In this document: positions 7,267 through 29,516 of the stretch, piece after piece
Layout of the letters: each line of letters opens with the position of its first letter
Numbering within the stretch: position 1 is the stretch's first letter
Translations under genes and position numbers: made by a program
Assembly (NCBI GenBank): GCA_963707435.1
Contig: CAVPPF010000005.1
Span: 578,714-642,713, forward strand
Length of the DNA stretch: 64,000 nt
Direction: 5' to 3'
From: an uncultured Actinomycetota bacterium
GTDB lineage: Bacteria; Actinomycetota; Acidimicrobiia; Spongiisociales; UBA4744
Notes under the pieces: generated by a model
The model's input: the letters and a program-made list of their open reading frames with translations, nothing else
Databases searched by the model: none
Told to the model about the DNA's origin: nothing

Positions 7267-8463
7267 TCAGCTCTCCAGGAAGGACTTCAGCTTGGCGATG
7301 CCTTCGTTGATCTCGTCTACGCCGATGCCGGAGTAGGCAAAGCGGATGTACTTCTCCGGTTCGCCCTGCTGGGCCCGGCCGAAGTGCAGCCTGGTCGTGA
7401 AGGACACTCCGGTGTTGTGGAGCACCGCCCGCCGGAACTCCTCGTAGTCCTGCATTCCCAGATTGGCCATCGCTTCGGTCACATTGGGGAAGAGGTAGAA
7501 GGTCGCGTTGGGCACATACGTACGGACCCCGGCGATCGAGTTGAGGCCGGCAGCCAGCACGTCCCGGCGTTCCTGCAGGGTGGTGAGGATGGCCTTGACT
7601 TCCGTCTGGTCGCCGGTGAGGCCGGCCACGGCGCCGTACTGGATGAAGTGGTTGGAGCAGGATTCGTCGTTGACATTGATCTTGGCGATCACGTCGACGA
7701 TCGGCTTGGGACCAATGCTGGCTCCCAGCCGCCAGCCCGTCATGGCGAATCTCTTCGAGAACGTATAGAGGATCACGGTGCGGTCCACCATGCCCGGCTG
7801 CTCGACGAATGACCGGCTCGTTCCCTCGTACCGCATGTCGAAATAGGCCTCATCGGCCAGGACGTACAGATCGTGGCGACGCGCCAGTTCGGCCAGCCGC
7901 TCATGCTCCGAAACCGAGCACTCGGCCCCCGTCGGGTTCTGCAGGTCGTTGATGATGAGCAAGCGGGTCTTGGGGGTGATCGCCCGCTCAATCGAGTCGA
8001 AGTCCAGACCGAAATTACGCTCCCCCTCCACGTACCCGTAGGGAACGGCCACGCCGCCATGGAACTCGATTTGTGATTCGTAGATCGGGTATCCCGGATT
8101 CGGGTAGAGCACCTCATCGCCAGGATTCATCAACGCGAGGATGAACTTGCCGATGGTCGGCTTGCCGCCCGGCTGGGCAACGACGTTCTCGGGTCCGTAG
8201 GCAACGTGGTGGGATGCAGACACGTCGGCGGCCAGCGCCTCGCGCAGCTGCGGGATACCGGCATTCGGGCAGTACCCGGTCTTCCCGTCCTTCAGCGCCT
8301 TCCAGCTGCCCTCCACCACCGTGGAGGGAGTGGCCAGGTCGAGATCCCCCAGGTGGAAGGGGTATACCTTGTTTCCCTCTGCGGCAAAGGCGTTGGCTTC
8401 ACCCGAAACGGCAAAGGCCGTCTCGGTTCCCAGTCGGGCAATACGGTCGGCAATGGTCACCAT
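7267..8463 (-). CDS. PLP-dependent class I/II aminotransferase
   Basis: GIPQLREALA, LQNPTG, LADEAY, TFSKRFAMTGWRLG (PLP Lys), YIRFAY. Confidence 0.93.
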   Translation of the reverse strand: MVTIADRIARLGTETAFAVSGEANAFAAEGNKVYPFHLGDLDLATPSTVVEGSWKALKDGKTGYCPNAGIPQLREALAADVSASHHVAYGPENVVAQPGGKPTIGKFILALMNPGDEVLYPNPGYPIYESQIEFHGGVAVPYGYVEGERNFGLDFDSIERAITPKTRLLIINDLQNPTGAECSVSEHERLAELARRHDLYVLADEAYFDMRYEGTSRSFVEQPGMVDRTVILYTFSKRFAMTGWRLGASIGPKPIVDVIAKINVNDESCSNHFIQYGAVAGLTGDQTEVKAILTTLQERRDVLAAGLNSIAGVRTYVPNATFYLFPNVTEAMANLGMQDYEEFRRAVLHNTGVSFTTRLHFGRAQQGEPEKYIRFAYSGIGVDEINEGIAKLKSFLES

Positions 8464-8472
8464 GGAGTTCTC

Positions 8473-9597
8473 CTATAAGTCTTCGGCGTTGACAATGCTG
8501 GGGGCGGCCCGCGGGATGTCTCCCGAGAGGAAGGGGGTGATGTCGTCGCCGTCCCAGACGGGATACCCCTGCAGTATGCCCGCAACGTTGGCGGCGGCCA
8601 GGCTGGACATCCCCTCTCGCGTCCACACGGTGGCCGAGGCGATATGCGGAACGACAACCACGTTGTCGAGTTCCGCCAGACCCGGCTTCATCGCCGGTTC
8701 GTCTTCGAAAACATCGAGGCCCACCCGGAACTCCGGGTTGTTCCGGCAGTGCTCGACCAGCGCCACCTCATCGATCACCGGACCGCGGCTCGAGTTCACG
8801 AGGACCGCATCTGGCTTCATGACCGCCAGCGCTTCGGCGTTGATCAGGTGGTGGGTACTGTCGTCCAAGACCGTGTGAAGACTGACGACGTCGGCTTCCC
8901 GCAGGACGTCCATCACCGAGTCCAGGCGCCGGCAGGTGAGCGGTCCCTCACCGCGGGCGACGAGGAAGGCGGAGTAGTCGGCGACGTACTGCTCGAGGGC
9001 CGGGTTCGGATAGAGGTCGTAGTAGACCAGATCCATCTTGTGCCCCTCGACCATCATGCGGGCGTAGGCACTCCCGATCCGGCCGGCGCCGATGACACCT
9101 ACCGTCGAGCCGACGAACCGCTTCCCCAGGAACATGGTGGGCAGCCAGCCCTTGTAGTGGCCGCCCCGCATGAAGCGATCGCCTTCGGTGACCCGCCGCC
9201 CGGCGGCAAACGTCAACGCAACAGCCATCTCGGCGGTCGTCTCCGTCAGGACACCCGGGGTGTTCCCGACGGGAATGCCGTTGGCGGTTGCTGCCGCGAC
9301 ATCGACGTTGTTGTAGCCGACGGCCCCGTTGCTGTAGGCCCTCCCTCCGGCTGCCGCCAGCGCTGCGAACAGGTCTGCGTTCCAGTCCTCGGTCAACTGA
9401 CCGATCACCCCGTCGCAGCGATCGCCGATCCGGGCGATGATTTCTTCGTTGGACAGCACAGCCGGGTCGGTGCAGATCTCAATCGAGCAGTCGGCAGATT
9501 GCAGAATCTGCTTCCAATGCTCGCCGGGCAGCGCCTTAGTCACAATGACCCGGCGGCTTCCTCCCGGATTGACGATGATCCATTCCTTCTCGGACAT
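8473..9597 (-). CDS. D-glycerate dehydrogenase / hydroxypyruvate-glyoxylate reductase (plant HPR1-like)
   Basis: CDGVIGQLTEDW, VGYNNVDV, GNTPGVLTETTAE, GVIGAGRIGSAYARMMVEG, NSSRGPVIDE, GLDVFEDEP, VPHIASA. Confidence 0.9.
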   Translation of the reverse strand: MSEKEWIIVNPGGSRRVIVTKALPGEHWKQILQSADCSIEICTDPAVLSNEEIIARIGDRCDGVIGQLTEDWNADLFAALAAAGGRAYSNGAVGYNNVDVAAATANGIPVGNTPGVLTETTAEMAVALTFAAGRRVTEGDRFMRGGHYKGWLPTMFLGKRFVGSTVGVIGAGRIGSAYARMMVEGHKMDLVYYDLYPNPALEQYVADYSAFLVARGEGPLTCRRLDSVMDVLREADVVSLHTVLDDSTHHLINAEALAVMKPDAVLVNSSRGPVIDEVALVEHCRNNPEFRVGLDVFEDEPAMKPGLAELDNVVVVPHIASATVWTREGMSSLAAANVAGILQGYPVWDGDDITPFLSGDIPRAAPSIVNAEDL

Positions 9598-9638
9598 GTG
9601 ATGTACCCCTTCTCTCACTCGGACCGGCGAAAGCTCCT

Positions 9639-10613
9639 CTACATGGTGAGCGCCATCACCGCCTTCTGCACGTGCAGACGGTTTTCGGCCTGGTCGAACA
9701 CCCGGCTCCAGCGCCCGTCGATGACGCCGTCGGTCACTTCGATGTTGCGGTCGGCCGGCAGCGGGTGCATGTAGATGGCATCCTCGTCGGCCAGTTCCAT
9801 GCGGCGCTCGTCGGCGATCCAGTCCTTGTACTTCTCGGAGATCTTGGCGGATTCCTCGTGGTCGGAGGTCGTCAGCATCGAGCCCCAGCTCTTGGCATAG
9901 ACAACGTCGGCACCCCGCATGCCTTCATCGAAGTCTTCGATGATCTCGAAGCTGCCGTGTGCCTTCTTGGCGTTCTCTTCGGCCTGAGCCACGATCTCGG
10001 GCATCAACTTGAACTCGGGAGGACGGGTCAACCGGACGTTCGCGCCGAAACGGGTCATGAGCAGGATGACGCTCTGCGGGACGCTGATCGGCTTCTGATA
10101 GCTCGCCGCATAGGCATAGCTCATATTGAAGGTCAGCTTGCGCGGATCGCCCTTTTGCTCGATGACGGTGAGCAGGTCGGCGAGGGCCTGAAACGGGTGG
10201 TACCAGTCGCATTGCATGTTGAGGACGGGCGTCCGGCTGGCCTCGGCAACTGCCCTGATGTAGTCGTTGCCGATTCCCCAGTCGACGTTGCGGATGGCGA
10301 TGCCGTCGTCGTAGCGACCCAGGATCTCGCCGATCTCCTTCCAGGTGTCGCCGTGGCCGATCTGAGTGCTGGTGCTGTCGAGGAACATGGCGTGGCCGCC
10401 CAACTGCGCCATGCCGGCTTCAAAGCTGGCCCGCGTCCGGGTGCTGGAGAAGAAGAAGAGCATCGCCAGTACCTTGTCCCGCAGCAACGCGTGCGGCTCG
10501 CCGAGCGCCCGCCTCCGCTTCAAGTCGAGAGCTACGTCGATGACGGTGTCGAGTTCGTCCTTGGTCCACTCCTGGGTGGTGATCATGTCCCGGCCGTGCA
10601 GGTATGTCTGCAT
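9639..10613 (-). CDS. YgeW-like (OTCase-superfamily) carbamoyltransferase
   Basis: SSTRTR, LNMQCDWYHPFQ, SYAYAASYQKPISVPQS (YgeW-type Pro-rich loop), YAKSW, HPLPADR. Confidence 0.8.
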   Translation of the reverse strand: MQTYLHGRDMITTQEWTKDELDTVIDVALDLKRRRALGEPHALLRDKVLAMLFFFSSTRTRASFEAGMAQLGGHAMFLDSTSTQIGHGDTWKEIGEILGRYDDGIAIRNVDWGIGNDYIRAVAEASRTPVLNMQCDWYHPFQALADLLTVIEQKGDPRKLTFNMSYAYAASYQKPISVPQSVILLMTRFGANVRLTRPPEFKLMPEIVAQAEENAKKAHGSFEIIEDFDEGMRGADVVYAKSWGSMLTTSDHEESAKISEKYKDWIADERRMELADEDAIYMHPLPADRNIEVTDGVIDGRWSRVFDQAENRLHVQKAVMALTM

Positions 10614-10626
10614 GTTCGCTCCTTGT

Positions 10627-11358
10627 CTAGGCCCCGGCTTTCCGCCGGATCAGGCGGAAGCGGAGCAGGTCATCTCTGAAAAATGAGGTGGATTTCACCA
10701 CCGGTTCGTTGTCCTGGTCGAAGCCGACCTCCTCAAAACTGATCGATGGAGTACGACGCGGCACCTCGAGTTGCCCGGCCTCGTGGTTCCCCAACGCTAC
10801 CGGGACGATCTCCGAGAGGTAGTAGGAAAGAAATCGCGAGCAGTGATCCTCGAGCAACTCGTAGAGCGGCTTCTTGCCGTCGGCGGCTCCGATCCGCACT
10901 GCAACGAGTTGCTCCGGGATTCGGTTCGTGGTGAGCACCACGGGCAGATCGTTCTCGAGGAACAGCTTCTCCATGACCACCACCGGCTCGCCGCTCTCGA
11001 TCTTCAATTCGGCCGCCAATTGGTGGTCTGCTGCTTCTGTCCGGATCTTCTCGACCCGCACGGAGGGCGTATACCCGTGGTCCCGGAGCAACTCCTCGTA
11101 CGACCACATCTCCTCGAGACGTGACTTGATCTGCAAGCCGGGTTCGTTCACGAAGGTGCCCGCCCCCTGCTTGCGGTAGATGGAGCCTTCCTGCTCCAGG
11201 CGGCTCAGCGCATCGCGGATGGTGGTCCGGCTGACCCCCAGATCCGTTGCCAGTTCGGTCTCGGAAGGGATCCGTCCTGCTTCGAAGTCGCCGCCGACGA
11301 TCCGCTCTTTGAGATGTGCCTTCACCTGTTCGGTGAGCGACGGATTGCGGGTGATCAT
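10627..11358 (-). CDS. GntR/HutC-family transcriptional regulator (wHTH + UTRA)
   Basis: IPSETELATDLGVSRTTIRDALSRL...GAGTFV; UTRA-sized C-terminus; TAGGAT -10 lies 7 nt before the ATG (leaderless). Confidence 0.93.
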   Translation of the reverse strand: MITRNPSLTEQVKAHLKERIVGGDFEAGRIPSETELATDLGVSRTTIRDALSRLEQEGSIYRKQGAGTFVNEPGLQIKSRLEEMWSYEELLRDHGYTPSVRVEKIRTEAADHQLAAELKIESGEPVVVMEKLFLENDLPVVLTTNRIPEQLVAVRIGAADGKKPLYELLEDHCSRFLSYYLSEIVPVALGNHEAGQLEVPRRTPSISFEEVGFDQDNEPVVKSTSFFRDDLLRFRLIRRKAGA

Positions 11359-11393
11359 CGAACGAATCCTAACTAGCCGGTCGGGTCATCATG

Positions 11394-11412
11394 TTGTATG
11401 CTTGTATGACAA
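11394..11412. promoter_or_regulatory. Candidate GntR operator in the divergent promoter region
   Basis: TTGTATG direct repeat (11394, 11402) and palindrome TTGT-ATG-ACAA (11402-11412); AT-rich within a GC-rich background. Confidence 0.5.
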
Positions 11413-11498
11413 ATCGTACCTGAGGTCCCCGTCGCTGTCCAGCGACCGGATCTCTTCCCGGGAAACCGCCCGGGACGGACAACCAAGAGGAGTGCTAC

Positions 11499-12449
11499 AT
11501 GCGCAGCTTCGCCGGACGGGACATTCTGTCGCTCAAGGATTTCGAGCGGAATGAGTTCTTCCACGTTTTCGAGATTGCCGACGAACTCGAGCCCATCGCC
11601 CGGGAACGTCGCAACACCGACCTGCTGGCCGACAAGACGATGGTCACCGCCTTCTACCAGCCCTCAACCCGCACCCGTCTGGCTCATGAGGCCGCCATGC
11701 ATCGCCTCGGCGGGCATGTCACCGGCTTCTCGGACGCCAAGATGACCCGGGCCGGAGACTTCTACCAGGAGTCCATCAAGGACACCGTCCACATGCTGGA
11801 GTACTACGGCGACGTGCTGGTCATGCGCCACTTCCAGCAGGGCGCCCCTCATGAGGCGGCTCGCTGGGCATCGATCCCGGTGATCAACGCCGGCGACGGG
11901 TGGGGCGAACATCCCACTCAGGTCCTCACCGACCTTTACACCGTGCAAAAGGAAACCGGCAGCGTGGACGGCAAGACGTTCGTCTGCATCGGCGACCACC
12001 GCATGCGCACCATGCACTCGATCGGATATGCCCTCAGCCAGTTCGACGCCGAGATGGTCATCCTGGCTCCCGAAGAGATGTCGCCCACGAAAGAGTTCCT
12101 GGCCGAACTCGACGAGAAGGGCACCTCGTGGCGCATCGTTGAGCACATCAACGACGTGATCGAAGAGGCCGACGTCATCTACATGGAACCGGTCGTCCAG
12201 CCCGACTACACGCAGTCGCGTCAGGAAAAGGCCGACGAGTACGGGACCACGCCCGCCAACTACCGGATCACCAAAGAGGTCATGAAGAAGGCCAAGGGTG
12301 ACTCGATCGTGCTGCACTCGCTTCCCCGGATGGACGAGCTGCTGCCCGAGGTGGACCAGCTCAAGCATGCCCGTTACTGGCAAGAGGCGTACAACGGCGT
12401 CGTCATGCGCATGGCACTGCTGGCGCTCGTTCTCGGCGTAACGGAGTAG
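11499..12449 (+). CDS. Atypical aspartate carbamoyltransferase-like enzyme
   Basis: FYQPSTRTR, INAGDGWGEHPTQ, HSLPR; aspartate-binding loops altered (YMEPVVQ in place of YMTRxQ). Confidence 0.85.
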   Translation: MRSFAGRDILSLKDFERNEFFHVFEIADELEPIARERRNTDLLADKTMVTAFYQPSTRTRLAHEAAMHRLGGHVTGFSDAKMTRAGDFYQESIKDTVHMLEYYGDVLVMRHFQQGAPHEAARWASIPVINAGDGWGEHPTQVLTDLYTVQKETGSVDGKTFVCIGDHRMRTMHSIGYALSQFDAEMVILAPEEMSPTKEFLAELDEKGTSWRIVEHINDVIEEADVIYMEPVVQPDYTQSRQEKADEYGTTPANYRITKEVMKKAKGDSIVLHSLPRMDELLPEVDQLKHARYWQEAYNGVVMRMALLALVLGVTE

Positions 12450-12452
12450 ACG

Positions 12453-13397
12453 ATGCCCAGAGCAGTCATCGCCATCGGCGGCAACTCGCTGATCACCGAC
12501 AAAGATCACCAGAGCGTCCAGGATCAGTACCTGGCCGCCGGTGAGACCGATCACCACATCGCCCAGATGGTCAAGGCCGGCTGGGACGTAGCGATCTCGC
12601 ACGGAAACGGTCCGCAAGTTGGATTCATCCTGCGCCGTTCTGAGCTGGCACGGGGCGAGCTGCATGAAGTGCCGCTCGACGTGTGCGGCGCCGACACACA
12701 GGGAGCGATCGGGTACATGCTCCAGCAGAACCTGATCAACGACTTCCGGGCCATGGGCCTGAACAAGCAGGTGGCGACCGTAGTCACCCAGGTCGAAGTC
12801 GGCGCCGACGATCCGGCCATGCTCAACCCGTCCAAGCCGATCGGCACCTTCTTCGACGAGGAAGAGGCCAAGGTTCGGCAGGAACGGGACGGCTGGGCGG
12901 TCGTCGAAGATGCCGGACGCGGCTGGCGCCGGGTAGTTGCGTCACCCAAACCGGTCCGGATCGTCGAGATCGAAGCCATCCGTACCCTGATGGATGCCGG
13001 GGTAATCGTCATCGCCGTCGGCGGGGGCGGCATACCCGTCGTGGCCGACGAGAACGGTGATCTGTACGGGGTCGCGGCCGTCATCGACAAGGACCTGGCT
13101 TCGGCCGTCCTGGCCAAAGACCTCAATGCGGACCTGCTGCTCATCTCCACGGCAGTCGAGAAAGTTGCGCTCCGGTTCGGAACTCCCGAACAAGAGTGGG
13201 TCGACCGCATGACCCTCTCCGAGTTGAAGGGGTACCTGGCGGAAGGCGGCCATTTCGCGGAAGGATCGATGGCACCCAAGATGCGGGCCGTCGTCCAGTT
13301 CCTCGAAGCAGGCGGCGAACGCGCCTTGATCACCAACCCGGAGAACATCGCCAAGGCCATCGCCGGCGACACCGGGACCTGGATCGTCCATGACTGA
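12453..13397 (+). CDS. arcC: Carbamate kinase
   Basis: IAIGGNSL, HGNGPQVG, GRGWRRVVASPKP, GGGGIPV, AVIDKD, GSMAPKM. Confidence 0.95.
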   Translation: MPRAVIAIGGNSLITDKDHQSVQDQYLAAGETDHHIAQMVKAGWDVAISHGNGPQVGFILRRSELARGELHEVPLDVCGADTQGAIGYMLQQNLINDFRAMGLNKQVATVVTQVEVGADDPAMLNPSKPIGTFFDEEEAKVRQERDGWAVVEDAGRGWRRVVASPKPVRIVEIEAIRTLMDAGVIVIAVGGGGIPVVADENGDLYGVAAVIDKDLASAVLAKDLNADLLLISTAVEKVALRFGTPEQEWVDRMTLSELKGYLAEGGHFAEGSMAPKMRAVVQFLEAGGERALITNPENIAKAIAGDTGTWIVHD

Positions 13398-14649
13398 CCA
13401 GGTCACCGGACTCGTCTGCGTGATTTGTGGGACTGCGTACCCGGCCGAGGAGGCCGGGTACGTGTGTCCGGATCACGGCAACGAGGGTATCCTCGACGTC
13501 CGGTACGACTACGACCTGATCGGGTCCCGGATCTCCCGGGAGTCTTTGCGCGAGGCACGCGATCCCACCATGTGGCGGTATCGCCCGCTCCTTCCGGTGG
13601 CGCCGGATGCAGCCGTACCCCCTCTCACCGTTGGGGGAACTCCCACCTACGACGCTCCCCGGCTGGCCGAAGCCCTGGGCATTCGCCGGGTCTGGGTGAA
13701 GGATGAGGGCCGCCAACCGACGGCCTCGCTGAAGGATCGCGCCAGTGCCATGGCCATCGTCAAGGCACGGGAACAGGGCGCCGAGGTGGTGACAACTGCC
13801 AGCACCGGCAACGCCGCTGCGGCGCTGAGCGGGTTGTCCGCCAGCATGGGCCAGAAGAACGTGATCTTCGTTCCGGAGACGGCCCCGCAAGCCAAGATCG
13901 CCCAGCTGCTCGCCTACGGCTCCGTCGTGGCGTTGGTCAAAGGTACCTACGGCGATGCCTTCGATCTCTGCATGGAAGCTGCCGCAGAATTCGGCTGGTA
14001 CAACCGCAACACCGGGTTCAACCCGTACATGACCGAGGGCAAGAAGACGGCCGGACTCGAGATTCTCGAACAGCTCGACTGGAAGATCCCCGATGCCATA
14101 TTTGTCAGCGTCGGCGACGGGTCGATCATCGGTGGCGTGCACAAGGCGATGAAAGACGCCGTCGCCCTCGGCTGGATCGAGCACTCCCCCCGCATCTTCG
14201 GCATCCAGTCGGCCGGGAGCGACTACCTCGTGCAGGCCTACGAGAGCGGCGAGGACGTCCTGACCAAGCCACCCATCTCGGCAACCACCATTGCCGACTC
14301 CATCAGCGCCGACCTGCCCCGCGATCGGATCAAGGCGATGGCCGCCGTTGTCGAAACGGACGGGGCCTACCTGCGGGTTGCCGACGAAGCCATCCTGGCG
14401 GCGGTTCCTATCCTGGCCCGCGGGTCGGGTGTCTTTGCCGAACCGGCCGGAGCGGCAGCCTATGCCGGCCTTATCGTCGCGGTCGAACGGGACCTCATCG
14501 GGCCGACCGATCGGGTGGTCGTGCTCTCCACCGGGAGCGGCCTCAAGGATGTGGCTTCCGCCATGAAAGCGGTCAAGGCCGCAGGAACAGAACCCATGGT
14601 GGTCGAACCCACGCTGGAAGCATTGAAGAAAGCTATGGAGAAGAAGTAG
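13390..14649 (+). CDS. Threonine synthase-like fold-type II PLP enzyme with N-terminal Zn-ribbon-like motif
   Basis: CVICG...CP, QPTASLKDR (PLP Lys), ASTGNAA, VGDGS, FAEPAGAA, TGSGLKD. Confidence 0.85.
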   Translation: MTDQVTGLVCVICGTAYPAEEAGYVCPDHGNEGILDVRYDYDLIGSRISRESLREARDPTMWRYRPLLPVAPDAAVPPLTVGGTPTYDAPRLAEALGIRRVWVKDEGRQPTASLKDRASAMAIVKAREQGAEVVTTASTGNAAAALSGLSASMGQKNVIFVPETAPQAKIAQLLAYGSVVALVKGTYGDAFDLCMEAAAEFGWYNRNTGFNPYMTEGKKTAGLEILEQLDWKIPDAIFVSVGDGSIIGGVHKAMKDAVALGWIEHSPRIFGIQSAGSDYLVQAYESGEDVLTKPPISATTIADSISADLPRDRIKAMAAVVETDGAYLRVADEAILAAVPILARGSGVFAEPAGAAAYAGLIVAVERDLIGPTDRVVVLSTGSGLKDVASAMKAVKAAGTEPMVVEPTLEALKKAMEKK

Positions 14650-14704: not shown

Positions 14705-16168
14705 ATGATTGATCTCACCATCCACGAAAAGACGCTCGCTTCGGCCGCCGCCCAGGCGAAGAACCGGTCGATTCGCATCCCCACTTTCAAGGAAATGCGG
14801 GATCCTTCGCTCATTCCCGATTCGATCAAGCAAGAGCTCAAGTCGGTTGGATTGTGGGACCTCGACCCGCGCAACCTGTACCGGATAACCTGGCACAACG
14901 AGCCCACCCCCACCGGCGGTGGCTACGGACCGGTCAACTTCGTCGAGCTTCCTTCCGAGCTGACCGGCACCCCCGCCCGGATTCTCCTCCTCGAGGGCAA
15001 GTGGTTTCCGACCGGCGCCCACAAGGTCGGGGCGGCCTTCGGCTGCCTGGTTCCCCGCCTCGTGACCGGTCAGTTCGATCCGGTCACCCAGAAGGCCGTC
15101 TGGCCTTCGACCGGCAACTACTGCCGGGGAGGCGCCTACGACTCCCATCTCCTGGCGTGCGAATCCGTTGCCATCCTCCCCGAGGGCATGAGCAAGGAAC
15201 GCTTCGAATGGCTCAAGACGGTGGCAGGAGAAATCATCGCTACCCCGGGGACAGAATCGAACGTCAAAGAGATCTTCGACAAGTGCAACGAGCTGCGGGC
15301 CTCGGGCGAAGACCTGGTGATCTTCAATCAGTTCGACGAGTTCGGCAACTATCTCTGGCACTACGCGGTGACCGGACCGGCCATGGTCGAAGTGCTCGAA
15401 GCCGCCATGCGGCCCGGCGACGAGTTCCGGGGCGTAACCCTGACCACCGGTTCGGCCGGGACGATCGCGTCGGGTGACTATCTCAAACAGCTCTATCCCA
15501 ACTCGAAGATCGCGGCCGGCGAGGCCATACAGTGCCCCACCATCCTCTACAACGGATTCGGGGAGCACCGCATCGAAGGCATCGGCGACAAGCACATCCC
15601 CTGGATTCACAACGCCAAGAACACGGACATGGCCATCGGACTCGACGATGAGGCAACGATTGCCCTCACCCGCCTGTTCAACGAGCCGGCCGGTCAGTCC
15701 TACCTGGCCGACCAGGGCGTAGCCCCCGAACTGATCGAGAAGCTCCCGCTGCTCGGGATCTCCGGAATCGGCAACATGCTCATGGCGATCAAGATGGCCA
15801 AGTACTACGAGATGGGCTCCCAGGATGTCGTCATCACCGTCGGGACGGACTCCATGGAAATGTACGGGAGCCGCCTGCGCGAGCTCAACGAGGAGCGGGG
15901 CGAGTTCACCACCCTGGACGCAGCGGCGGCCTACCACCGCTACCTGCTCGGGCAGGGCATCGACCACGTCCAGGAACTGGGCTACTACGACCGCAAGCGG
16001 GTCCACAACCTGAAGTACTACACGTGGGTCGAACAGCAGGGCAAGACCTACGAGGAGATCCAGGCGCAGTGGTACGACCCGGACTACTGGACCTCGATTC
16101 AGGCGATGGTCGACCCCATCGATGAGCTGATCGTGGCGTTCAACAAACAGGTCGCCAGCTTGAGTTAG
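14705..16168 (+). CDS. Uncharacterised fold-type II PLP-dependent enzyme (487 aa)
   Basis: FPTGAHKVG (PLP Lys), WPSTGNY, FNQF, TGSAGT, HRIEGIG. Confidence 0.8.
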   Translation: MIDLTIHEKTLASAAAQAKNRSIRIPTFKEMRDPSLIPDSIKQELKSVGLWDLDPRNLYRITWHNEPTPTGGGYGPVNFVELPSELTGTPARILLLEGKWFPTGAHKVGAAFGCLVPRLVTGQFDPVTQKAVWPSTGNYCRGGAYDSHLLACESVAILPEGMSKERFEWLKTVAGEIIATPGTESNVKEIFDKCNELRASGEDLVIFNQFDEFGNYLWHYAVTGPAMVEVLEAAMRPGDEFRGVTLTTGSAGTIASGDYLKQLYPNSKIAAGEAIQCPTILYNGFGEHRIEGIGDKHIPWIHNAKNTDMAIGLDDEATIALTRLFNEPAGQSYLADQGVAPELIEKLPLLGISGIGNMLMAIKMAKYYEMGSQDVVITVGTDSMEMYGSRLRELNEERGEFTTLDAAAAYHRYLLGQGIDHVQELGYYDRKRVHNLKYYTWVEQQGKTYEEIQAQWYDPDYWTSIQAMVDPIDELIVAFNKQVASLS

Positions 16169-16221: not shown

Positions 16222-17565
16222 GTGTCTGAGACTGTTGCGGAGTTCATGGACCGGGTTATCGCCCGGAGCCCCGGAGAGCCTGAGTTCCATCAGGCTGCGC
16301 ACGAAGTCATCGAGTCGATCTGGCCGGTGCTCGACCGGCATCCGGAGTTTCGGGAAGCCAACATCCTCGACCGGATCGTTGAACCGGAGCGGGTGATCAT
16401 GTTCCGGGTGCCCTGGGTTGACGACAAAGGGCGCACCCGGGTCAACCGGGGCTTTCGCGTCGAGATGAACAGCGCCATCGGGCCTTACAAGGGCGGCCTG
16501 CGGTTCCACCCATCCGTCAACCTGGGCGTGCTCAAATTCCTCGCTTTCGAGCAAGTCTTCAAGAACGCCCTGACCACGCTGCCGATGGGAGGCGGCAAAG
16601 GAGGATCGGACTTCGATCCGAAGGGGCGGAGCGACGGCGAGGTCATGCGCTTCTGCCAGTCCTTCATGAGCGAGTTGTTCCGCCATATTGGGGCACGCAC
16701 CGACATCCCCGCCGGTGACATCGGGGTCGGAGCCCGGGAGATCGGCTATCTCTTCGGGCAGTACAAGAAGCTCGCCAACGAGTTCTCGGGGATCCTGACC
16801 GGCAAGAGCCTGGAGTGGGGCGGGAGCCTGATCAGATCCGAGTCGACCGGGTACGGCACCATCTATTTCGCAGAGGAGATGCTGAAGACTCGGGACGACT
16901 CGATCCTGGAGAAGACCTGCCTGGTGTCGGGTTCAGGAAATGTTGCTCAGTACGCCGTGGAGAACATCCTTCGGCTGGGTGGTAAAGCCGTCACTCTGTC
17001 GGATTCGAGCGGGTTCATCTACGACGCCGAGGGTATCGATCACGAGAAGCTCGCCTGGGTCAAGGACTTGAAGAACGTGCGACGGGGTCGGATCGCCGAG
17101 TACGCCGACCAGTTCAACGCCGAGTACTACCCGGACCGGCGGCCCTGGGGGGTCGAGGGCGCCGAATGCGCTTTCCCCTGCGCCACCCAGAACGAACTGA
17201 GCGGCGAAGACGCCAAGCAACTGCTGGCCAACGGCGTGTATGTGATTGCCGAAGGCGCCAACATGCCGAGCGAACCCGAAGCGGTTGCGCAGTTCGTGGA
17301 ACAGAAGATCCTGTTCGGGCCGGGCAAGGCTGCCAACGCAGGCGGTGTGGCTACCAGTGGCCTCGAGATGGCTCAAAACGCGGTGTTCAGCAACTGGACC
17401 AGGGATGAGGTCGACCAGCGGTTGTTGATGATCATGGTCAGCATCCATCGGAGCTGCCAGGAAGCGGCCGAACACTATGGAACCCCAGGAAACTACGTCA
17501 ACGGCGCCAACATCGCCGGCTTCATCAAAGTAGCCGACGCCATGCTGGACCAGGGCGTTGTATAG
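16222..17565 (+). CDS. gdhA: NADP-specific glutamate dehydrogenase
   Basis: GPYKGGLRFHPSVN, PMGGGKGGSDFDPKG, DIPAGDIGVG, SGSGNVAQY, EGANMP, KAANAGGV. Confidence 0.96.
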   Translation: MSETVAEFMDRVIARSPGEPEFHQAAHEVIESIWPVLDRHPEFREANILDRIVEPERVIMFRVPWVDDKGRTRVNRGFRVEMNSAIGPYKGGLRFHPSVNLGVLKFLAFEQVFKNALTTLPMGGGKGGSDFDPKGRSDGEVMRFCQSFMSELFRHIGARTDIPAGDIGVGAREIGYLFGQYKKLANEFSGILTGKSLEWGGSLIRSESTGYGTIYFAEEMLKTRDDSILEKTCLVSGSGNVAQYAVENILRLGGKAVTLSDSSGFIYDAEGIDHEKLAWVKDLKNVRRGRIAEYADQFNAEYYPDRRPWGVEGAECAFPCATQNELSGEDAKQLLANGVYVIAEGANMPSEPEAVAQFVEQKILFGPGKAANAGGVATSGLEMAQNAVFSNWTRDEVDQRLLMIMVSIHRSCQEAAEHYGTPGNYVNGANIAGFIKVADAMLDQGVV

Positions 17566-17577
17566 GCAGGAGGCGTC

Positions 17578-17970
17578 ATGAGAAAAGACGTTGGATATTT
17601 CGAAGGAACCGACTCGACCCTCCTGACCGCCCTGGTCTGCGAAGGGTTCGACACCATCCCGATGTCGAACGGCTACGACAACCACGGTCGCCACGTGCAG
17701 TTGATCAATCAGGAGAACAAACCCGATTTGCTCATCGGCTACGTCCACAAGGTCTTTGCCCCCGACGACGGCGACCCCAACTACACGACCTACCAGGACA
17801 TCTTCCATACCTGTCGTATCTACGGGGTTCCCGTGTTGCTCGAGGTGCCCAAAAAGCTCCAGGAGAAGGCGCGGGCGCTATTTCAGGACGTACCCGACGT
17901 AGTCCAGTTCGTAGATCCGGACGACATGCTGAAGGTGGCAATCAACATCCTCGGAGACCCCCAGAAGTAG
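17578..17970 (+). CDS. Hypothetical protein co-transcribed with gdhA
   Basis: Strong SD (GGAGG), GC3-biased codons, 12 bp after gdhA. Confidence 0.75.
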   Translation: MRKDVGYFEGTDSTLLTALVCEGFDTIPMSNGYDNHGRHVQLINQENKPDLLIGYVHKVFAPDDGDPNYTTYQDIFHTCRIYGVPVLLEVPKKLQEKARALFQDVPDVVQFVDPDDMLKVAINILGDPQK

Positions 17971-18062: not shown

Positions 18063-21000
18063 CTACTCCTGGTAGCCGGGACTTTCGATCTTGGTGCCCG
18101 CCTCCCCGGCCATGACCGGGAGATGGGCCATGGAGCCCTGCAAACCCCGCAGCAGCACGAACATGTCGGCGGCCGGGGTCAGCGACAACGCCTGGCCCTC
18201 GAGCGTGCCCGCGGCGGGCGTAGCTTCGAGCAGGCCGAACGATTCGAGATCCAGGCGGGCCGTGAACGAAGGCGACGAGTACTCGACGGCACCATTGACC
18301 GAGAGACGGTGCGTCTCCCCATTCCAGCGACCCTCCATCGAACCGTCCTCGAACACCATGAAGGCGTTGTCCTTCTCGGCTTCGAAATCGGCCCGGTCGA
18401 GGTACAAACGCGGTTTGTCCTTGTAGGGATCACCCGACGTCGGGCAGGCCGTCGTGCAGTTGCCGCATTCGTTGCAGAAGTCGGTGAGCACCGCAATCTG
18501 CAACGTTTGAGCCGCCCGATAGGCGTGCTTCTCGCCCGCCACCACGGAGTCTCCGTCCACCGCGAGAGCCGGCAGCGCCACGGCGAACGGATCCATCTCG
18601 TAGGTCATCAGGGCCATGTTGGGACATACCCCGACGCACAGGCTGCAGATCTCATGACAATCGAGACACCGGCTCGCCTCGGCGATGGCTTGCTCGGGCG
18701 TGTAACCCAGCACGGTCTCTTCGAAACCGTCGCGCCGATCGAGCGGTGAGAACTCGATCGGGACCCGGTACTCGCGCCGAGCCCGGCGGACGGTCATCTC
18801 GTGCAGATCGACCCGCACGGCTGCTGCTTCCTCCGGCGGGTCCGCTTGACCGTGAGCGGCGATGATCGCTGCCGCAACCGCCTTGCCATCCGCCGCCGCC
18901 TTGACGATTGAGGACGGGCCATCGGCCGCCACGTCGCCGCCGGCGTAGACGCCGGGAATCGAGGACTCGAATGTGAACGGATCGACCTCGATGTACCCGC
19001 GCTTGGTGAGCGCCGGTGTTTCCTCGCCGAAGAAGTCCAGCACCGAATGCTGGCTGATGGCCAGGATGAGGGTGTCGAGCGGAATCTCGAACTCAGAGTC
19101 CGGTACGTCGTGGGGGATCTTGCGGCCCGAAGCGTCGCGGTCGCCCCGGTACTCCGTCTTCGTGCAGATGAGTCCGGCCAGCTTGCCATCCTCAATGTGG
19201 AGGGCGTGCGGAGCAGCCAGTTCGAAGATGCCGATCCCCTCCTCTTTGCAGGCGTGGATCTCCTCCGGATCGGCCGGCATCTGATCGATCGTGCGCCGGT
19301 AAATGAGCGACGCCTGTTCTGCACCCACCCGGCGGGCCGAACGGACGGCATCCATGGCGGTATCCCCTGCCCCGATGACGCCCACCCGGGCGCCGATCGG
19401 CACGGGATTCTCTTCTCGAACGCTGCGCAGGAAGAGCAGCGCATCCATGATGCCTTCCGAGTCCTCCCCCTCGAGATTGAGCCGCTTGGCGAGCTGGGCG
19501 CCGACCGCCACAAAGATGGTCTCGAACCCATCGGCCCGGAGTCCGGCCATGGTGAAATCGACACCGGCCGTCTGGCCGTAGCGGATCTCCACACCCAGTT
19601 CCTGGAGGATCGCCATGTCCCGGTCGATCTCCGATTGGGGAAGTCGATAGCTGGGGATGGCTCCACCGACCATGCCGCCGGCGTAGGGGTGAGCTTCGAA
19701 AATCGTGACCGTGAACCCGGCGTACCCGAGCGCCTGGGCGGCGGACAGGCCGGCCGGTCCCGCACCGATGATGGCGACCTTCGGACCGGAGGCAGGCTTC
19801 TTGCGGAACATGACGGGCTGTTGCTCGTGCTCCATGATGAACCGCTTCATGTGCCGGATTGCCAGCGGCTGATCGAGGTGGGTCCGGATGCACGTGTTCT
19901 CGCAGAGGTGGTCGCAGACGCGGCCGAGAATGGACGGCAGCGGATTGTCCTCCCGGGTGAGCTTGACGGCTTCGAGAAACTCGCCGTTTCGGACGGCGTT
20001 CATGTACTGCGGAACCTTCTGATCGACCGGACACTCATCCAGGCACGGAGCCTCGATGCAGTCGAAGAAGCCCAGGGTGCGGGGTGTCTTGGATCGGTCC
20101 ATCCGGAAGGACTCTTTCTCGTAGCGCCAGTCCTTCCGAACCTTCTCTGCGTAGTGACGCAGGTTGAGACGGGCCATCACCTTGACGACCAGGTCGACGA
20201 GGGCCCCGGTTCGTTCCTGGTCGAACCCGTGCGCTCCCGCCCACGCTGAAACCCGGTCGGCGACGGGTCCCTCGCCTGCGGCGAGGTGCCCGGCCAACGC
20301 CGAACATGCGTCGCTATCGAGGGCCAGGCCGCTGTCGGTGAGGGCCGACCAGCGGAGCAGCGGCACGAACTCTTCATAGCCTTCGCGGGAGATGGCCGAG
20401 CGAGCGATGAAGTCGTCCATGTCGGATGCTCCGACCGCTTCGATCGCCGCTTCGAGGTTCTCCATGTACTGCAGCATGCGCAGGTAGCCGCCGGTCTTGA
20501 GCAGGTCGGAACACACCGTCACCGTCTTCATGCCGCCGGCCAGGAGGTCGGCCACGTTGAAGCAGTCGGCTCCCCCGGCGAAGGAGAGCATGAGGTCGCC
20601 CCGGAACTCCTCGCTGATCTTGGAGGCAAGGTTGGTGGTCACCGGGTGAAGGGCCCGGCCGGACAAGTACATCATCTCGTCCCGATCGAAGACCGTGCGC
20701 CAGTTGTCCACCTCCAGCGTGTTGGACAGCTTGAGGCCGAACTTCCGATCGTGCTCGGCGGCAATCCTGCGCAGGTTGTGGAACATGGGCACGGCGTCGA
20801 CGTACTTGAGGTCATGTCCGAACGCCTCATCCGGAACCGGGACGTCCACGAAGGCCAGATCCTCGTTGATGATCTTGCGGACCCGGTCGGCGCCCAGCAA
20901 GGTGGGGTTGCACTTCACCGAGGTATGCAGTTTGCGCTCTTCCAGGAGGTAGTGGGTGATCCGCTCGATTTCGTCGGGCGGGCATCCGTGCATCGTCGAA

Positions 21001-21623
21001 AGCGTGATGGTGTCCGAGACCAGCGCCGGGATCTCCAGGTCGCGCACCTCGGGATAGCGGCGGGCAACGATGTCGATGAACGCAGGCAGGTACTCCGAAG
21101 CGTCGAGCATCGTGTCGAGGTACCACTGCACGTTGGGTTTGAGGATCCCCTCCAGGTTGTAGCCGACGCTCATGTTGAAGATCATCCCGGGCCGGTCGCC
21201 CGGGAACCCGAACTTGTGGTGGAGCGCATGGATCAGGACCCAGGCCCGCAAATACTCGTCGAACGACTCGTAGACCTTGAGTTCCTGGGACCATTCGACG
21301 TTGTAGCCCTCATCTTCGATGTCGATGCACGGCTTGTTGACTTCGAGTTCGTCGAGCGTCTGCACGGTCTTCAACTCGATGAACCGGGCCCCGACGAGCC
21401 AGGAAACGATGATGTTCTGGGCCATCTGGGTGTGAGGACCGGCCGCCACTCCGAATGGTGTTTCGAGTATCTGACCGTATTTTTCGATACGGAACCGGTC
21501 GGTCTCCTTCGGGACGAAGAAAGCCGAGCGGGGCACGCCGAAGAGCGAGTCCTTCTGCTCCAGTTCGTCGAAGACCCAGTCGGTCAGCTGCTCCATCGAA
21601 ATGGGGTGGAATCGATCGGACAT
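18063..21623 (-). CDS. ygfK: YgfK-family flavin/Fe-S oxidoreductase
   Basis: MSDRFHP, GVAAGPHTQMAQNII, RFIELKTVQ, STMHGCPPDEIE, FGLKLSNT, GAGPAGL, and C-terminal CxxCxxCxxxCP clusters. Confidence 0.92.
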   Translation of the reverse strand: MSDRFHPISMEQLTDWVFDELEQKDSLFGVPRSAFFVPKETDRFRIEKYGQILETPFGVAAGPHTQMAQNIIVSWLVGARFIELKTVQTLDELEVNKPCIDIEDEGYNVEWSQELKVYESFDEYLRAWVLIHALHHKFGFPGDRPGMIFNMSVGYNLEGILKPNVQWYLDTMLDASEYLPAFIDIVARRYPEVRDLEIPALVSDTITLSTMHGCPPDEIERITHYLLEERKLHTSVKCNPTLLGADRVRKIINEDLAFVDVPVPDEAFGHDLKYVDAVPMFHNLRRIAAEHDRKFGLKLSNTLEVDNWRTVFDRDEMMYLSGRALHPVTTNLASKISEEFRGDLMLSFAGGADCFNVADLLAGGMKTVTVCSDLLKTGGYLRMLQYMENLEAAIEAVGASDMDDFIARSAISREGYEEFVPLLRWSALTDSGLALDSDACSALAGHLAAGEGPVADRVSAWAGAHGFDQERTGALVDLVVKVMARLNLRHYAEKVRKDWRYEKESFRMDRSKTPRTLGFFDCIEAPCLDECPVDQKVPQYMNAVRNGEFLEAVKLTREDNPLPSILGRVCDHLCENTCIRTHLDQPLAIRHMKRFIMEHEQQPVMFRKKPASGPKVAIIGAGPAGLSAAQALGYAGFTVTIFEAHPYAGGMVGGAIPSYRLPQSEIDRDMAILQELGVEIRYGQTAGVDFTMAGLRADGFETIFVAVGAQLAKRLNLEGEDSEGIMDALLFLRSVREENPVPIGARVGVIGAGDTAMDAVRSARRVGAEQASLIYRRTIDQMPADPEEIHACKEEGIGIFELAAPHALHIEDGKLAGLICTKTEYRGDRDASGRKIPHDVPDSEFEIPLDTLILAISQHSVLDFFGEETPALTKRGYIEVDPFTFESSIPGVYAGGDVAADGPSSIVKAAADGKAVAAAIIAAHGQADPPEEAAAVRVDLHEMTVRRARREYRVPIEFSPLDRRDGFEETVLGYTPEQAIAEASRCLDCHEICSLCVGVCPNMALMTYEMDPFAVALPALAVDGDSVVAGEKHAYRAAQTLQIAVLTDFCNECGNCTTACPTSGDPYKDKPRLYLDRADFEAEKDNAFMVFEDGSMEGRWNGETHRLSVNGAVEYSSPSFTARLDLESFGLLEATPAAGTLEGQALSLTPAADMFVLLRGLQGSMAHLPVMAGEAGTKIESPGYQE

Positions 21624-21652: not shown

Positions 21653-22675
21653 TCATAGGCGGGCGTGCAGGCGGGCGGCTTGCTCGGCGGCTTTGGCGCG
21701 GATCTCGGCAGCATCGACCCTGGTGGGCTTGCCATCGGTGAAGACCACCTCGCCGTCGACCTTCACTTCCAGGGGCCGGACGCCCGGCGTGAACGCCAGG
21801 TGCCACGGATCCATCGGGTCGTACGACCACGTGACTTCGTCGTTGCGGGCCTCGGGCATGATGTCCCAGCCGGTCTCCAACCACGACCAGGCCTTGTCCG
21901 GTCCGCACGTGATATCGACGCTGCGCTGCATGACGTATGCCAGCCGGAAGGACTCAATGACGTTGGCACCAATGCCGTCCGTTCCCAACGCCACCGGGTT
22001 CTTGAACCGGGCCGGATTGGCATACCCAACGGCGTTGTTCAGGTTGGAGCGAGGGTTGTGCAGGATCGTTCCTCGCAAGGTGTGATCGGTGGGGAGATGC
22101 ACGCAGTGGCTCAGCAACCAGTTGTCCCGGGTCATGCCGTCGAGCCGTTGTGGAGCGTCGATATCACCGATTCCTTCGGCGACGTGAATGTGAACGCCCA
22201 CCCCGAGTTCCTCGGCAAGGCCGGCGGCAGCTTCCAGCGACTCATCGGTGCACGTGAAGGCCGCATGGATACCAACCAGCGCCTTGTTGCCTTCCTGAAC
22301 GAAGCGCCGGTTCTCCTCCAGGCCCCGCCGGGCACCGTCGGCCCCGTGCCGGTCGGTGATCCCGTAGGCGGGGAGAACCCGCACCCCGACCTCGGCACAT
22401 GCTTCGGCGATGACACTGAGGCTCCCCTCAATGGCGTTGGGAGATTCGTGATGATCGACGATGGCCGTCGTGCCCGACTCGAGCGCCTCGAGGGCACCAA
22501 GCATGGCGGACCAACGGATCATGTCCAGGTCGAGCGCGGTGTCCAGTCGCCACCAGATCTGCTCGAGGACCTCCTGGAAGTTGGTCGGGGTCTTGGGGGG
22601 CGGGGGCATACCGCGTGCCAGGGCCGAGTAGAGGTGGTGATGGGCGCAAACCAGGCCCGGTGTCGTGGCGGACAT
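21653..22675 (-). CDS. ssnA: SsnA-like amidohydrolase (short N-terminus)
   Basis: PGLVCAHHHLYSALARG, WWRLD, GTTAIVDHHESP, GIHAAFT, HIHVAEG, HNPRSNLNNAVG, LGTDG. Confidence 0.82.
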   Translation of the reverse strand: MSATTPGLVCAHHHLYSALARGMPPPPKTPTNFQEVLEQIWWRLDTALDLDMIRWSAMLGALEALESGTTAIVDHHESPNAIEGSLSVIAEACAEVGVRVLPAYGITDRHGADGARRGLEENRRFVQEGNKALVGIHAAFTCTDESLEAAAGLAEELGVGVHIHVAEGIGDIDAPQRLDGMTRDNWLLSHCVHLPTDHTLRGTILHNPRSNLNNAVGYANPARFKNPVALGTDGIGANVIESFRLAYVMQRSVDITCGPDKAWSWLETGWDIMPEARNDEVTWSYDPMDPWHLAFTPGVRPLEVKVDGEVVFTDGKPTRVDAAEIRAKAAEQAARLHARL

Positions 22676-25306: not shown

Positions 25307-25380
25307 GTCACACCCTCTCAATAGAGCCGGTTCTACGCAACCGTAGAGCGATCGCCCGGTGGTGTCATCTTGAGGTCGAT

Positions 25381-28282: not shown

Positions 28283-28318
28283 GCAAGGACCAGACGGTCC
28301 CCACAACGAGGAGGAACA

Positions 28319-29383: not shown

Positions 29384-29418
29384 GAGGAAGTGTGAGGAGC
29401 GGCTGCGAGAAGGACTGT

Positions 29419-29446
29419 CGTACTTTGTACTTCGTACCTGGTACCG
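29419..29446. repeat. Degenerate heptamer array with GTAC core (4 units)
   Basis: CGTACTT TGTACTT CGTACCT GGTACCG. Confidence 0.75.
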
Positions 29447-29468
29447 CGACCTCAATCGTGGCAGTCGA

Positions 29469-29494
29469 CCGGGGCGGGCGGCCGCTCGCCCCGG
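29469..29494 (+). terminator. GC-rich hairpin after the binding-protein gene (mRNA stabiliser or partial terminator)
   Basis: CCGGGGCGGGCG/CGCTCGCCCCGG inverted repeat. Confidence 0.5.
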
Positions 29495-29516
29495 CTCACA
29501 ACCATGAGGTGGCAGT

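Follow-up and report, generated by a model that had tools for sequence, protein, structure and literature searches.

The 64,000-nucleotide stretch analysed here (the window), from contig CAVPPF010000005.1 of an uncultured bacterium of the Actinomycetota, encodes at positions 11499–12449 of its forward strand a protein of 316 residues, pATC, which is predicted to have the fold of an aspartate carbamoyltransferase (ATCase), retains the carbamoyl-phosphate site and has lost the site for the aspartate side chain. A genuine ATCase gene, pyrB, is present elsewhere in the source genome, separate from pATC. Judging from the residues of the site and the neighbouring genes, the substrate of pATC is very probably a purine ureide. 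We favour, with roughly balanced confidence, a member of the pseudo-ATCase clade that serves catabolism, as a carbamoyltransferase in the lower half of purine breakdown by the reductive (2,8-dioxopurine) pathway. As its substrate we propose, at even chances, 2,3-diureidopropionate, from which pATC would phosphorolyse a single ureido group, the one at position 2 being the likeliest. Only tentatively do we suggest the most specific form of this reading, namely an ATCase turned round, with specificity for an alpha-ureido group, that of 2,3-diureidopropionate or 3-amino-2-ureidopropionate, and providing, together with a second carbamoyltransferase (TC2), two ATP per purine ring.

Site residues, predicted fold and family of pATC

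The start codon of pATC is preceded at a distance of 7 nucleotides by AGAGGAG, and both halves of the carbamoyltransferase fold are matched in the protein by Pfam. Residues were mapped by BLASTP onto E. coli K-12 PyrB (38% identity) and by HMMER onto the P. abyssi ATCase 1ml4, using the list of E. coli ATCase site residues given by Shi et al. 2015. The carbamoyl-phosphate site is retained, with S56–T59 within the STRTR motif (residues 56–60) corresponding to S52–T55 of E. coli, R110 to R105, and H138 and Q141 of the HPTQ motif (138–141) to H134 and Q137. From the aspartate-binding set of R167, R229, Q231 and K84, only R167, which contacts the alpha-carboxylate, survives, as R170 within GDHRMRTMHS (165–174). 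The position of K84 is occupied in both alignments by Y89, which lies in an 80s loop (TRAGDFYQES, 83–92) that is longer than that of ATCase by one or two residues, and the position of P266 is occupied by S274 of the HSLP motif (273–276). The 240s loop, with YMEPVVQPDY at 228–237, is also longer than in PyrB. HMMER places P231 and V233 of pATC opposite R229 and Q231, whereas BLASTP treats EPVVQPDY as an insertion and places Q239 and R241 there; neither alignment restores the R-x-Q motif.

These substitutions are shared by the close relatives of pATC. When the window protein is aligned with its counterparts from 79 further loci (80 rows, 73–99% identical, from several phyla), 121 of the 316 positions are invariant, and the residue changes are therefore not due to chance. 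T-R-A-G-D, Y-Q-E, E230, P231, V232, Q234, Y237 and S274 are found in all 80 rows and D236 in 79, while R241 is found in just 68. Across a set of 49 aligned pseudo- and true ATCases, R170 and R110 are invariant (49/49). The conserved D87, E230, D236, Q234, Y89 and Y237 would suit a cationic or ureido side chain in the substrate. An AlphaFold2 model of the pATC monomer, computed from 49 aligned sequences, has a mean pLDDT of 95.2, with residues 231–250 as its sole weak part, and is matched by Foldseek to the PALA-bound P. abyssi ATCase 1ml4 with a TM-score of 0.89 and to E. coli ATCase chains with TM-scores of 0.87–0.88. The modelled protein has the ATCase fold, these comparisons speaking to the fold alone and not to the geometry of the pocket.

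The fold and the overall similarity could also be those of a second, divergent yet functional ATCase. Aspartate carbamoyltransferase is the name given to pATC and its close relatives by every source that names them, the NCBIfam model TIGR00670 of that name matches pATC with 267.4 bits (cut-off 236.95), and pATC is 38–41% identical to solved ATCases. Nevertheless, we consider such an activity very unlikely, as the second ATCase model, NF002032, stays below its cut-off (241.9 versus 263 bits), K84, R229, Q231 and P266 are all replaced, by residues that are invariant in the family, and the gene company in 80 related loci is catabolic. In addition, the source genome (G000; 3.2 Mb, 95.9% complete) contains four carbamoyltransferase genes, of which the best ATCase match, with 321 bits, lies on contig C7 within a pyrR-pyrB-pyrC string (a pyrR-like gene, pyrB and a dihydroorotase gene) and carries R-I-Q-A-E-R. 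Apart from pATC itself, none of the 46 open reading frames (ORFs) of the window scanned against NCBIfam matches a pyrimidine-synthesis family, and neither pyrI nor pyrC is found nearby. The YgeW models match pATC with 37 and 33 bits, far under their cut-offs of 453 and 500. In these respects the sequence-only reading of this DNA holds: it had described an intact carbamoyl-phosphate site, a retained alpha-carboxylate Arg, replaced Lys84 and 240s loops and the lack of pyr genes nearby, and had concluded that pATC is no normal PyrB and is coupled to the carbamate kinase encoded 3 nucleotides after its stop codon. The refutation it had named, that pATC might be the only pyrB of the genome, falls away with the gene on contig C7.

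A search of 1.84 billion cluster representatives with pATC returned 11,504 matches at E ≤ 0.001. From the best 150 of these, 90 matches of 285–360 residues were taken, 4 broken rows were dropped and a quick maximum-likelihood tree of 89 rows was computed. A branch with SH-aLRT 86 sets apart 42 rows that lack R-x-Q (96 for an inner set of 35 rows), and 33 of the 42 have the 80s-loop signature T-R-A-G-D-aromatic-x-E; the 44 rows with R-x-Q-x-E-R fall outside this group. The window family, represented by three rows, has a support of 99. The 42-row group appears to be that of the pseudo-ATCases of Barba, Dutoit, Legrain and Labedan (Barba et al. 2013, PMC4016543), although our tree and its rooting differ from theirs, and pATC has the traits that define them: it is a paralogue beside a genuine ATCase, keeps STRT and HPTQ, is altered at H265–P268 and has lost R230–Q232.

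Gene company and the reductive purine pathway

The reductive pathway of uric-acid breakdown was solved in 2025, in reports that concern gut bacteria only and describe one ATP-yielding step. Its first three enzymes are XdhD/DOPDH, YgfK, which performs the dearomatising step, and SsnA (Li et al. 2025; Liu et al. 2025, a preprint), the last yielding two cyclic products that bear free ureido groups (Li et al. 2025). HyuA then leads to 2,3-diureidopropionate, from which YgeW (with phosphate) and YgeY strip both ureido groups, and YgeX converts the resulting 2,3-diaminopropionate to pyruvate (Li et al. 2025; Liu et al. 2025). ATP-yielding phosphorolysis of 2,3-diureidopropionate has been demonstrated for YgeW together with the carbamate kinase YqeA (Liu et al. 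2025). It is disputed in what order the two ureido groups come off (Percudani 2025): Li et al. 2025 name YgeW as the enzyme that cleaves the 2-ureido group, whereas Liu et al. 2025 place YgeW on the 3-ureido group and YgeY on the 2-ureido group.

The TAG stop codon of pATC ends at position 12449, and the carbamate kinase gene (12453–13397, forward strand; TIGR00746, 376.6 bits versus a cut-off of 358) begins with an ATG at 12453 that has GGAG just 5' of it. On the reverse strand at 9639–10613 lies the gene for TC2, a second non-canonical carbamoyltransferase, which is OTC/AOTC/YgeW-like and remains below every curated NCBIfam cut-off (OTC, 265 of 306 bits; AOTC, 245 of 288; YgeW, 190 of 453). 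The best solved relatives of TC2 are the P. furiosus OTCase and, next, AOTCase and YgeW. In TC2 the ornithine motif of OTCase, D..W.SMG, reads K..WGSML, such that a Lys replaces the ornithine-binding Asp, and the 120s loop has 4 extra residues. The carbamate kinase gene is followed on the forward strand by the genes for PLP1 (13390–14649), a threonine-synthase-like pyridoxal-phosphate (PLP) enzyme of fold type II with an N-terminal Cys-rich stretch, and PLP2 (14705–16168), a distant cysteine-synthase-like enzyme of the same fold type with 487 residues. Sequence searches of solved structures with PLP1 and PLP2 return generic threonine-synthase and cysteine-synthase relatives and nothing closer.

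Further along the window, three genes on the reverse strand encode a YgfK-type flavin/Fe-S reductase (18063–21623; TIGR03315, 891.9 bits versus a cut-off of 835), a short SsnA-like amidohydrolase of 340 residues (21653–22675; 247–260 bits versus cut-offs of 444–455) and a selenium-dependent Mo enzyme of the xanthine dehydrogenase (XDH) type (22718–25321; TIGR03311, 832 bits versus a cut-off of 830). Because these three genes adjoin the module of pATC, TC2 and carbamate kinase, we place the module in the context of the reductive 2,8-dioxopurine pathway. The match of the SsnA-like protein begins near profile position 58, and its gene starts 42 nucleotides past the XDH stop codon. The same short form recurs in relatives from the Acidimicrobiia, and in 11 of these pATC, YgeY and a close TC2 are all missing.

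At least 584 related stretches are present in the genome collection, and the best 80 of these were compared with the window proteins by tblastn; 42 of the 80 loci are at least 15 kb long and 38 are shorter, such that absence means that a gene is unseen in the stretch available. The loci come from metagenome-assembled genomes of Acidimicrobiia, Nitriliruptoria, Anaerolineae and Verrucomicrobia and from two bacteria in culture, Pelolinea submarina and Leptolinea sp. Carbamate kinase is encoded in 70 of the 80 loci, directly downstream of pATC in 41 of those 70, and its adjacency in the window and presence in most of the loci lead us to regard pATC and the kinase as a probable catabolic couple. 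TC2 is present at 60% identity or more in 69 of the loci, PLP1 in 54 and PLP2 in 40. For the enzymes of the upper pathway the counts are 25 for the XDH-type gene, 11 for the SsnA-like gene and 8 for YgfK, and YgeY, a dihydropyrimidinase-like gene and YgeX were seen in 3, 3 and 2 loci, respectively. Family scans of six loci gave the same identities and, in addition, a xanthine permease, a gene of the cytidine/dCMP-deaminase family and CN-hydrolase genes. An 8-oxoguanine-deaminase-like hydrolase is found in 27 of the 80 loci. One such amidohydrolase, at 7840–9228 of locus L067 from Pelolinea submarina MO-CFX1, scores 688 bits against the 8-oxoguanine deaminase model (cut-off 532), and it accompanies the module mostly in Anaerolineae.

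An oxidative context has to be weighed as well, in which pATC would be a ureidoglycine carbamoyltransferase (UGTCase) like Rxyl_2847 of Rubrobacter xylanophilus and would act on allantoate from oxidative urate breakdown. Barba et al. 2013 divide the pseudo-ATCases by motif and gene context into three subgroups, of which only subgroup 1 is assayed in that account; its representative Rxyl_2847 phosphorolyses allantoate and, like pATC, is followed by a carbamate kinase within a purine cluster. The H(T/S)LP motif described for UGTCase (Shi et al. 2015) is likewise seen in pATC, as HSLP. However, subgroup 1 is marked by HPLA and AIA/AIS/SIA motifs and by allantoinase and carbamate kinase as neighbours (Barba et al. 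2013), whereas pATC has HSLP instead of HPLA, and an AIA-type motif was not found in it. The sole tree row with HPLA, P0197, belongs to a sister clade, apart from the window family. Moreover, pATC neighbours YgfK and an SsnA-like gene instead of uricase and allantoinase, and uricase, HIU hydrolase, OHCU decarboxylase and allantoinase over the cut-off were not found in the source genome, all of which makes a UGTCase improbable. An allantoinase/hydantoinase-like cyclic amidohydrolase on contig C2 (G000:C2:445266-446656; 548–2241 of locus L007) is split over three reading frames, which means frameshifts or assembly errors; its C-terminal piece scores 174 bits against allantoinase, and a CoA-transferase gene adjoins it.

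The same gene company bears on an anabolic use of pATC, in which it would make a ureido amino acid of the beta-ureidoalanine type as the building block of a secondary metabolite. Antibiotic clusters do contain diaminopropionate and diaminobutyrate carbamoyltransferases, but these are OTCase-like and carry an HDLP motif (Shi et al. 2015). Biosynthetic genes were seen neither in the window nor in the loci scanned, and a carbamate kinase, an XDH-type gene and a transporter of the purine type speak for catabolism, leaving an anabolic enzyme extremely unlikely.

In the source genome, YgeX is encoded 36 kb upstream of the window, and YgeY over the cut-off was not found. A cluster on contig C6 (locus L014, G000:C6:303000-322999) encodes a CN-hydrolase, an aminotransferase, a dihydropyrimidinase, a methylmalonate-semialdehyde dehydrogenase and an F420-type LLM oxidoreductase. 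This cluster looks like one for pyrimidine breakdown, and it holds the genome's only hydantoinase-type enzyme that could open ureidomethyl-hydantoin.

Divergently from pATC, the reverse strand encodes at 10627–11358 a GntR/HutC-type regulator with a UTRA domain, which is found at 50% identity or more in 44 of the 80 related loci. The intergenic region between this gene and pATC contains at about 11390–11420 a conserved operator-like element with TTGTATGACAA, and a similar element (...GTATAGTATGACCAAT) lies 5' of pATC in many related loci. The co-directional string that begins with pATC ends with genes for an NADP glutamate dehydrogenase and a 130-residue ORF (together 16222–17970, forward strand), both of which are present in 7 of the 80 loci; the ORF itself (17578–17970), 3' of the dehydrogenase gene, has no family match. 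Downstream of TC2, a class I/II aminotransferase and a D-2-hydroxyacid dehydrogenase (7267–9618, reverse strand) are shared with close relatives only, in 9 and 7 of the loci, respectively. A BMP-family ABC transporter, comprising two permeases, a binding protein and an ATPase (26178–31046, forward strand), scores under the named cut-offs for all four proteins. Contigs from sediment metatranscriptomes of two studies, which are 95–99% alike to the window, correspond to parts of the genes for TC2, the regulator, pATC, the kinase, PLP1 and PLP2. They bridge the junction between carbamate kinase and PLP1, and none of the listed records bridges that between pATC and carbamate kinase. These contigs are short, give neither strand nor expression level and are uninformative where they leave stretches uncovered; as such libraries can hold DNA, they are weak evidence and only a hint that the module is expressed in sediment.

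Alternation with YgeY and the choice of ureido group

In the scheme that we favour, the Se-type xanthine dehydrogenase, YgfK and the SsnA-like hydrolase would open the purine, and a hydantoinase encoded elsewhere would produce 2,3-diureidopropionate. Both ureido groups would then be removed with phosphate, by two different carbamoyltransferases. pATC would take the 2-(alpha-N-)ureido group of diureidopropionate or of 3-amino-2-ureidopropionate, and TC2 the omega-type 3-ureido group, which would liken TC2 to a catabolic OTCase whose substrate is the shorter homologue of citrulline. Each cleavage would provide carbamoyl phosphate, and from it ATP via the translationally coupled carbamate kinase, and the product 2,3-diaminopropionate would be handled by PLP1/PLP2 or YgeX. 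Within this scheme, the site residues and known relatives are what we infer the substrate, regiochemistry and reaction direction from. The invariance of the Arg for the alpha-carboxylate favours a 2-ureido compound, that is, an alpha-N-carbamoyl amino acid, and the loss of the acid-binding K84, R229 and Q231 favours one without an acidic side chain; the 2-ureido group is favoured in addition because, in allantoate, it is the alpha-ureido group that the sole assayed relative cleaves. Divided in this way between pATC and TC2, the two cleavages would follow the assignment of Liu et al. rather than the one made by Li et al. The sequence-only reading had named 2,3-diureidopropionate as an example of an alpha-N-carbamoyl amino acid with a neutral or basic side chain, and the neighbouring genes support it, since this compound is the ureide known from the reductive purine pathway.

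The distribution of pATC and YgeY among genomes is consistent with this scheme in the Actinomycetota. Within an even sample of 301 genomes of this phylum, pATC occurs in 7 and YgeY over the cut-off in 17, with both in none (0/301), and all 7 pATC carriers have an SsnA-like gene within about 10 kb of pATC. These counts include unpublished records (the pATC carrier G273 and the YgeY carriers G023, G125, G179 and G244), without which 6 pATC carriers and 13 YgeY carriers remain. Thirty of the 43 other Actinomycetota genomes with an SsnA-like match were searched again, leaving aside 6 of the 11 genomes above the cut-off and the 7 low scorers of full length; no weaker relative of pATC was found in these 30 down to E 1e-35, and a TC2-like gene of at least 50% identity is present in 15 of them. 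The source genome brings the number of genomes with such a gene to 16, among which pATC alone occurs in 6, YgeY alone in 8, neither in 2 and both in none (6, 4, 2 and 0 without the unpublished genomes). The 2 genomes with neither enzyme have tandem TC2-like genes, which may be another two-carbamoyltransferase solution; the tandem pairs, at G033:C10:51784-53846 and G213:C57:2714-4755, occur in genomes with a full-score SsnA. A single family, f39, includes one pATC genome and one YgeY genome.

The alternation can be followed gene by gene between two clusters. Cluster L100 contains YgeX, XDH, dihydropyrimidinase, SsnA, an LLM reductase, pATC and TC2, and cluster L101 an LLM reductase, YgeY, XDH, SsnA, a TC2-like gene, YgeX, dihydropyrimidinase and carbamate kinase, such that XDH, SsnA, the LLM reductase, dihydropyrimidinase, TC2 and YgeX are common to both and pATC is swapped for YgeY. 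Independently of pATC and YgeY, PLP2 alternates with YgeX, all four combinations being present. This second alternation places diaminopropionate downstream of pATC, and PLP1/PLP2 may be a non-homologous replacement of YgeX. A relative from the same order has XDH and an SsnA-like gene next to a PLP2-like gene and a pair of genes for CN-hydrolases, and no carbamoyltransferases (L098, G165:C1:530000-549999); this is a possible all-hydrolytic variant.

A number of points weigh against the scheme. In the Chloroflexota (201 genomes), pATC is found in 12 and YgeY over the cut-off in 37, one of which (G450) is unpublished, and 8 of the 12 pATC carriers have both. YgeY directly adjoins pATC in 6 of these carriers, in the order YgeY, pATC, TC2 and carbamate kinase (L103–L107; L102 ends after pATC), as well as in the Verrucomicrobia loci L064 and L070, and lies near pATC in L065. 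Three ureido-cleaving enzymes for two ureido groups argue against a simple one-for-one replacement. The counts moreover represent few independent lineages (7/301 and 12/201 carriers) and include unpublished records for 4 of the 8 YgeY-only genomes and 1 of the 7 pATC genomes. The window is without a hydantoinase, and the sole hydantoinase/dihydropyrimidinase over the cut-off in the source genome sits in the pyrimidine-type cluster on contig C6. With respect to the enzyme itself, the 240s loop can be aligned in two ways and is modelled with the lowest confidence (block means 74 and 66), and no member of the subgroup of pATC is assayed in Barba et al. 2013. Finally, the pathway intermediates are proposed to be R (D) configured (Liu et al. 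2025), while ATCase uses L-aspartate, and Li et al. and Liu et al. disagree on the regiochemistry of YgeW and YgeY (Percudani 2025), which leaves pATC without a secure template.

The smallest enzyme sets seen always combine a TC2/YgeW-type enzyme with one partner, which is pATC, YgeY or a second TC2. Such sets are compatible with a single step that pATC and YgeY each carry out through a different chemistry, both enzymes being retained in some lineages. The proposal of the sequence-only reading that pATC replaces a hydrolase fits the Actinomycetota, where the two never coincide in the 301 genomes and are exchanged between L100 and L101, but does not extend to the Chloroflexota or to two Verrucomicrobia loci; replacement of YgeY by pATC is a lineage-specific pattern and no rule. 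The genomes of the two Verrucomicrobia loci, L070 and L064, contain a TC2-like gene at 53–56% identity, which in the L070 genome lies beside carbamate kinase at another locus.

The pathway and the chemistry could also be as proposed and the ureide a different one. pATC would then act on albizziin or diureidopropionate at the 3-ureido group, or on the exocyclic ureido group that a cyclic intermediate carries, for which ureidomethyl-hydantoin and 5-ureido-dihydrouracil are candidates, and TC2, YgeY or both would take the 2-ureido group. The presence of YgeY beside pATC and TC2 in 6 of the 12 Chloroflexota carriers may indicate three substrates, free ureido groups are already present on both cyclic products of SsnA, and most loci are without a hydantoinase, given the 3 of 80 with a dihydropyrimidinase-like gene; furthermore, it is to YgeW, a relative of TC2, that Li et al. 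give the task of cleaving the 2-ureido group. In contrast, R170 is invariant, whereas enzymes that act on omega-amino groups carry other residues at this position (Shi et al. 2015). Genomes with only a TC2-like enzyme and YgeY, or only a TC2-like enzyme and pATC, would miss a step, which is avoided only if the specificity of TC2 shifts between lineages. We therefore regard a different ureide as possible, if rather unlikely.

If instead pATC takes the 2-ureido group, pATC and TC2 would together release two carbamoyl phosphates and provide two ATP per purine ring, compared with one in the E. coli route, and this variant of the pathway may conserve energy from both urea units. The alpha-specificity of pATC and its alternation with YgeY would, if true, favour the action of YgeY on the 2-ureido group and of YgeW on the 3-ureido group. 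The variant recurs in Acidimicrobiia, Nitriliruptoria, Anaerolineae and Verrucomicrobia of sediment, soil and groundwater. Owing to the label aspartate carbamoyltransferase, genome-based metabolic models count pATC as pyrimidine synthesis.

Comparison with known carbamoyltransferase systems

The sequence-only reading had called the transcarbamylase new, which does not hold for the family or for the reaction: pseudo-ATCases were described in 2013 (PMC4016543), and ATP-yielding phosphorolysis of diureidopropionate is that of YgeW with YqeA. In the literature searched, no paper was found that assigns the pATC subgroup a function, reports a pathway variant with two carbamoyltransferases or places the family in such a variant. 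The published gene network of Li et al. 2025 colours any PF00185 neighbour as "YgeW", and clusters with two carbamoyltransferases would consequently not stand out there.

Within the pseudo-ATCases, pATC may be closest to subgroup 2, represented by Nocardioides sp. JS614, which has the motifs H[ST]LP and GX[SC] and adjoins a ygeW homologue, xdhABC and hyuA (Barba et al. 2013). As in that subgroup, pATC is a paralogue beside a genuine pyrB, keeps STRT and HPTQ, has lost R-x-Q and reads HSLP in place of HPLP, and its neighbours are a YgeW-like carbamoyltransferase and xanthine-dehydrogenase genes. Unlike in subgroup 2, GX[SC] is not seen at R230–Q232 in pATC, where the alignments give PVV or QSR. 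Shifted by one residue, V-Q-P would suit subgroup 3, but that subgroup does not match in gene context. The HSLP motif of pATC thus appears to fit subgroups 2 and 3, and the motif at R230–Q232 seems to fit neither cleanly.

Rxyl_2847 provides a parallel for the chemistry, as it is also a catabolic enzyme with the ATCase fold, is followed by a carbamate kinase in a purine cluster and cleaves allantoate with phosphate at its alpha-ureido group, allantoate being the analogue of diureidopropionate with one carbon less (Barba et al. 2013; Percudani 2025). In contrast to Rxyl_2847, whose context is oxidative (uricase, allantoinase), pATC belongs to another clade and carries other motifs. With PyrB of P. 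abyssi (1ml4) and E. coli, pATC shares the fold, at TM-scores of 0.87–0.89 and 36–41% identity, the carbamoyl-phosphate site and R167, and it differs from them by the absence of K84, R229, Q231 and P266, the insertion in the 80s loop, the longer 240s loop and the lack of pyrI and pyrC nearby. A metabolic counterpart is YgeW with YqeA in E. coli and C. sporogenes, which has in common with the pATC system the coupling to carbamate kinase and the upstream enzymes XdhD/DOPDH, YgfK and SsnA, and with which pATC would also share the phosphorolysis of diureidopropionate. Unlike pATC, YgeW is a knotted protein of ~396 residues on the AOTCase/SOTCase side, and whereas the YgeW system combines one carbamoyltransferase with YgeY, the pATC system has two carbamoyltransferases.

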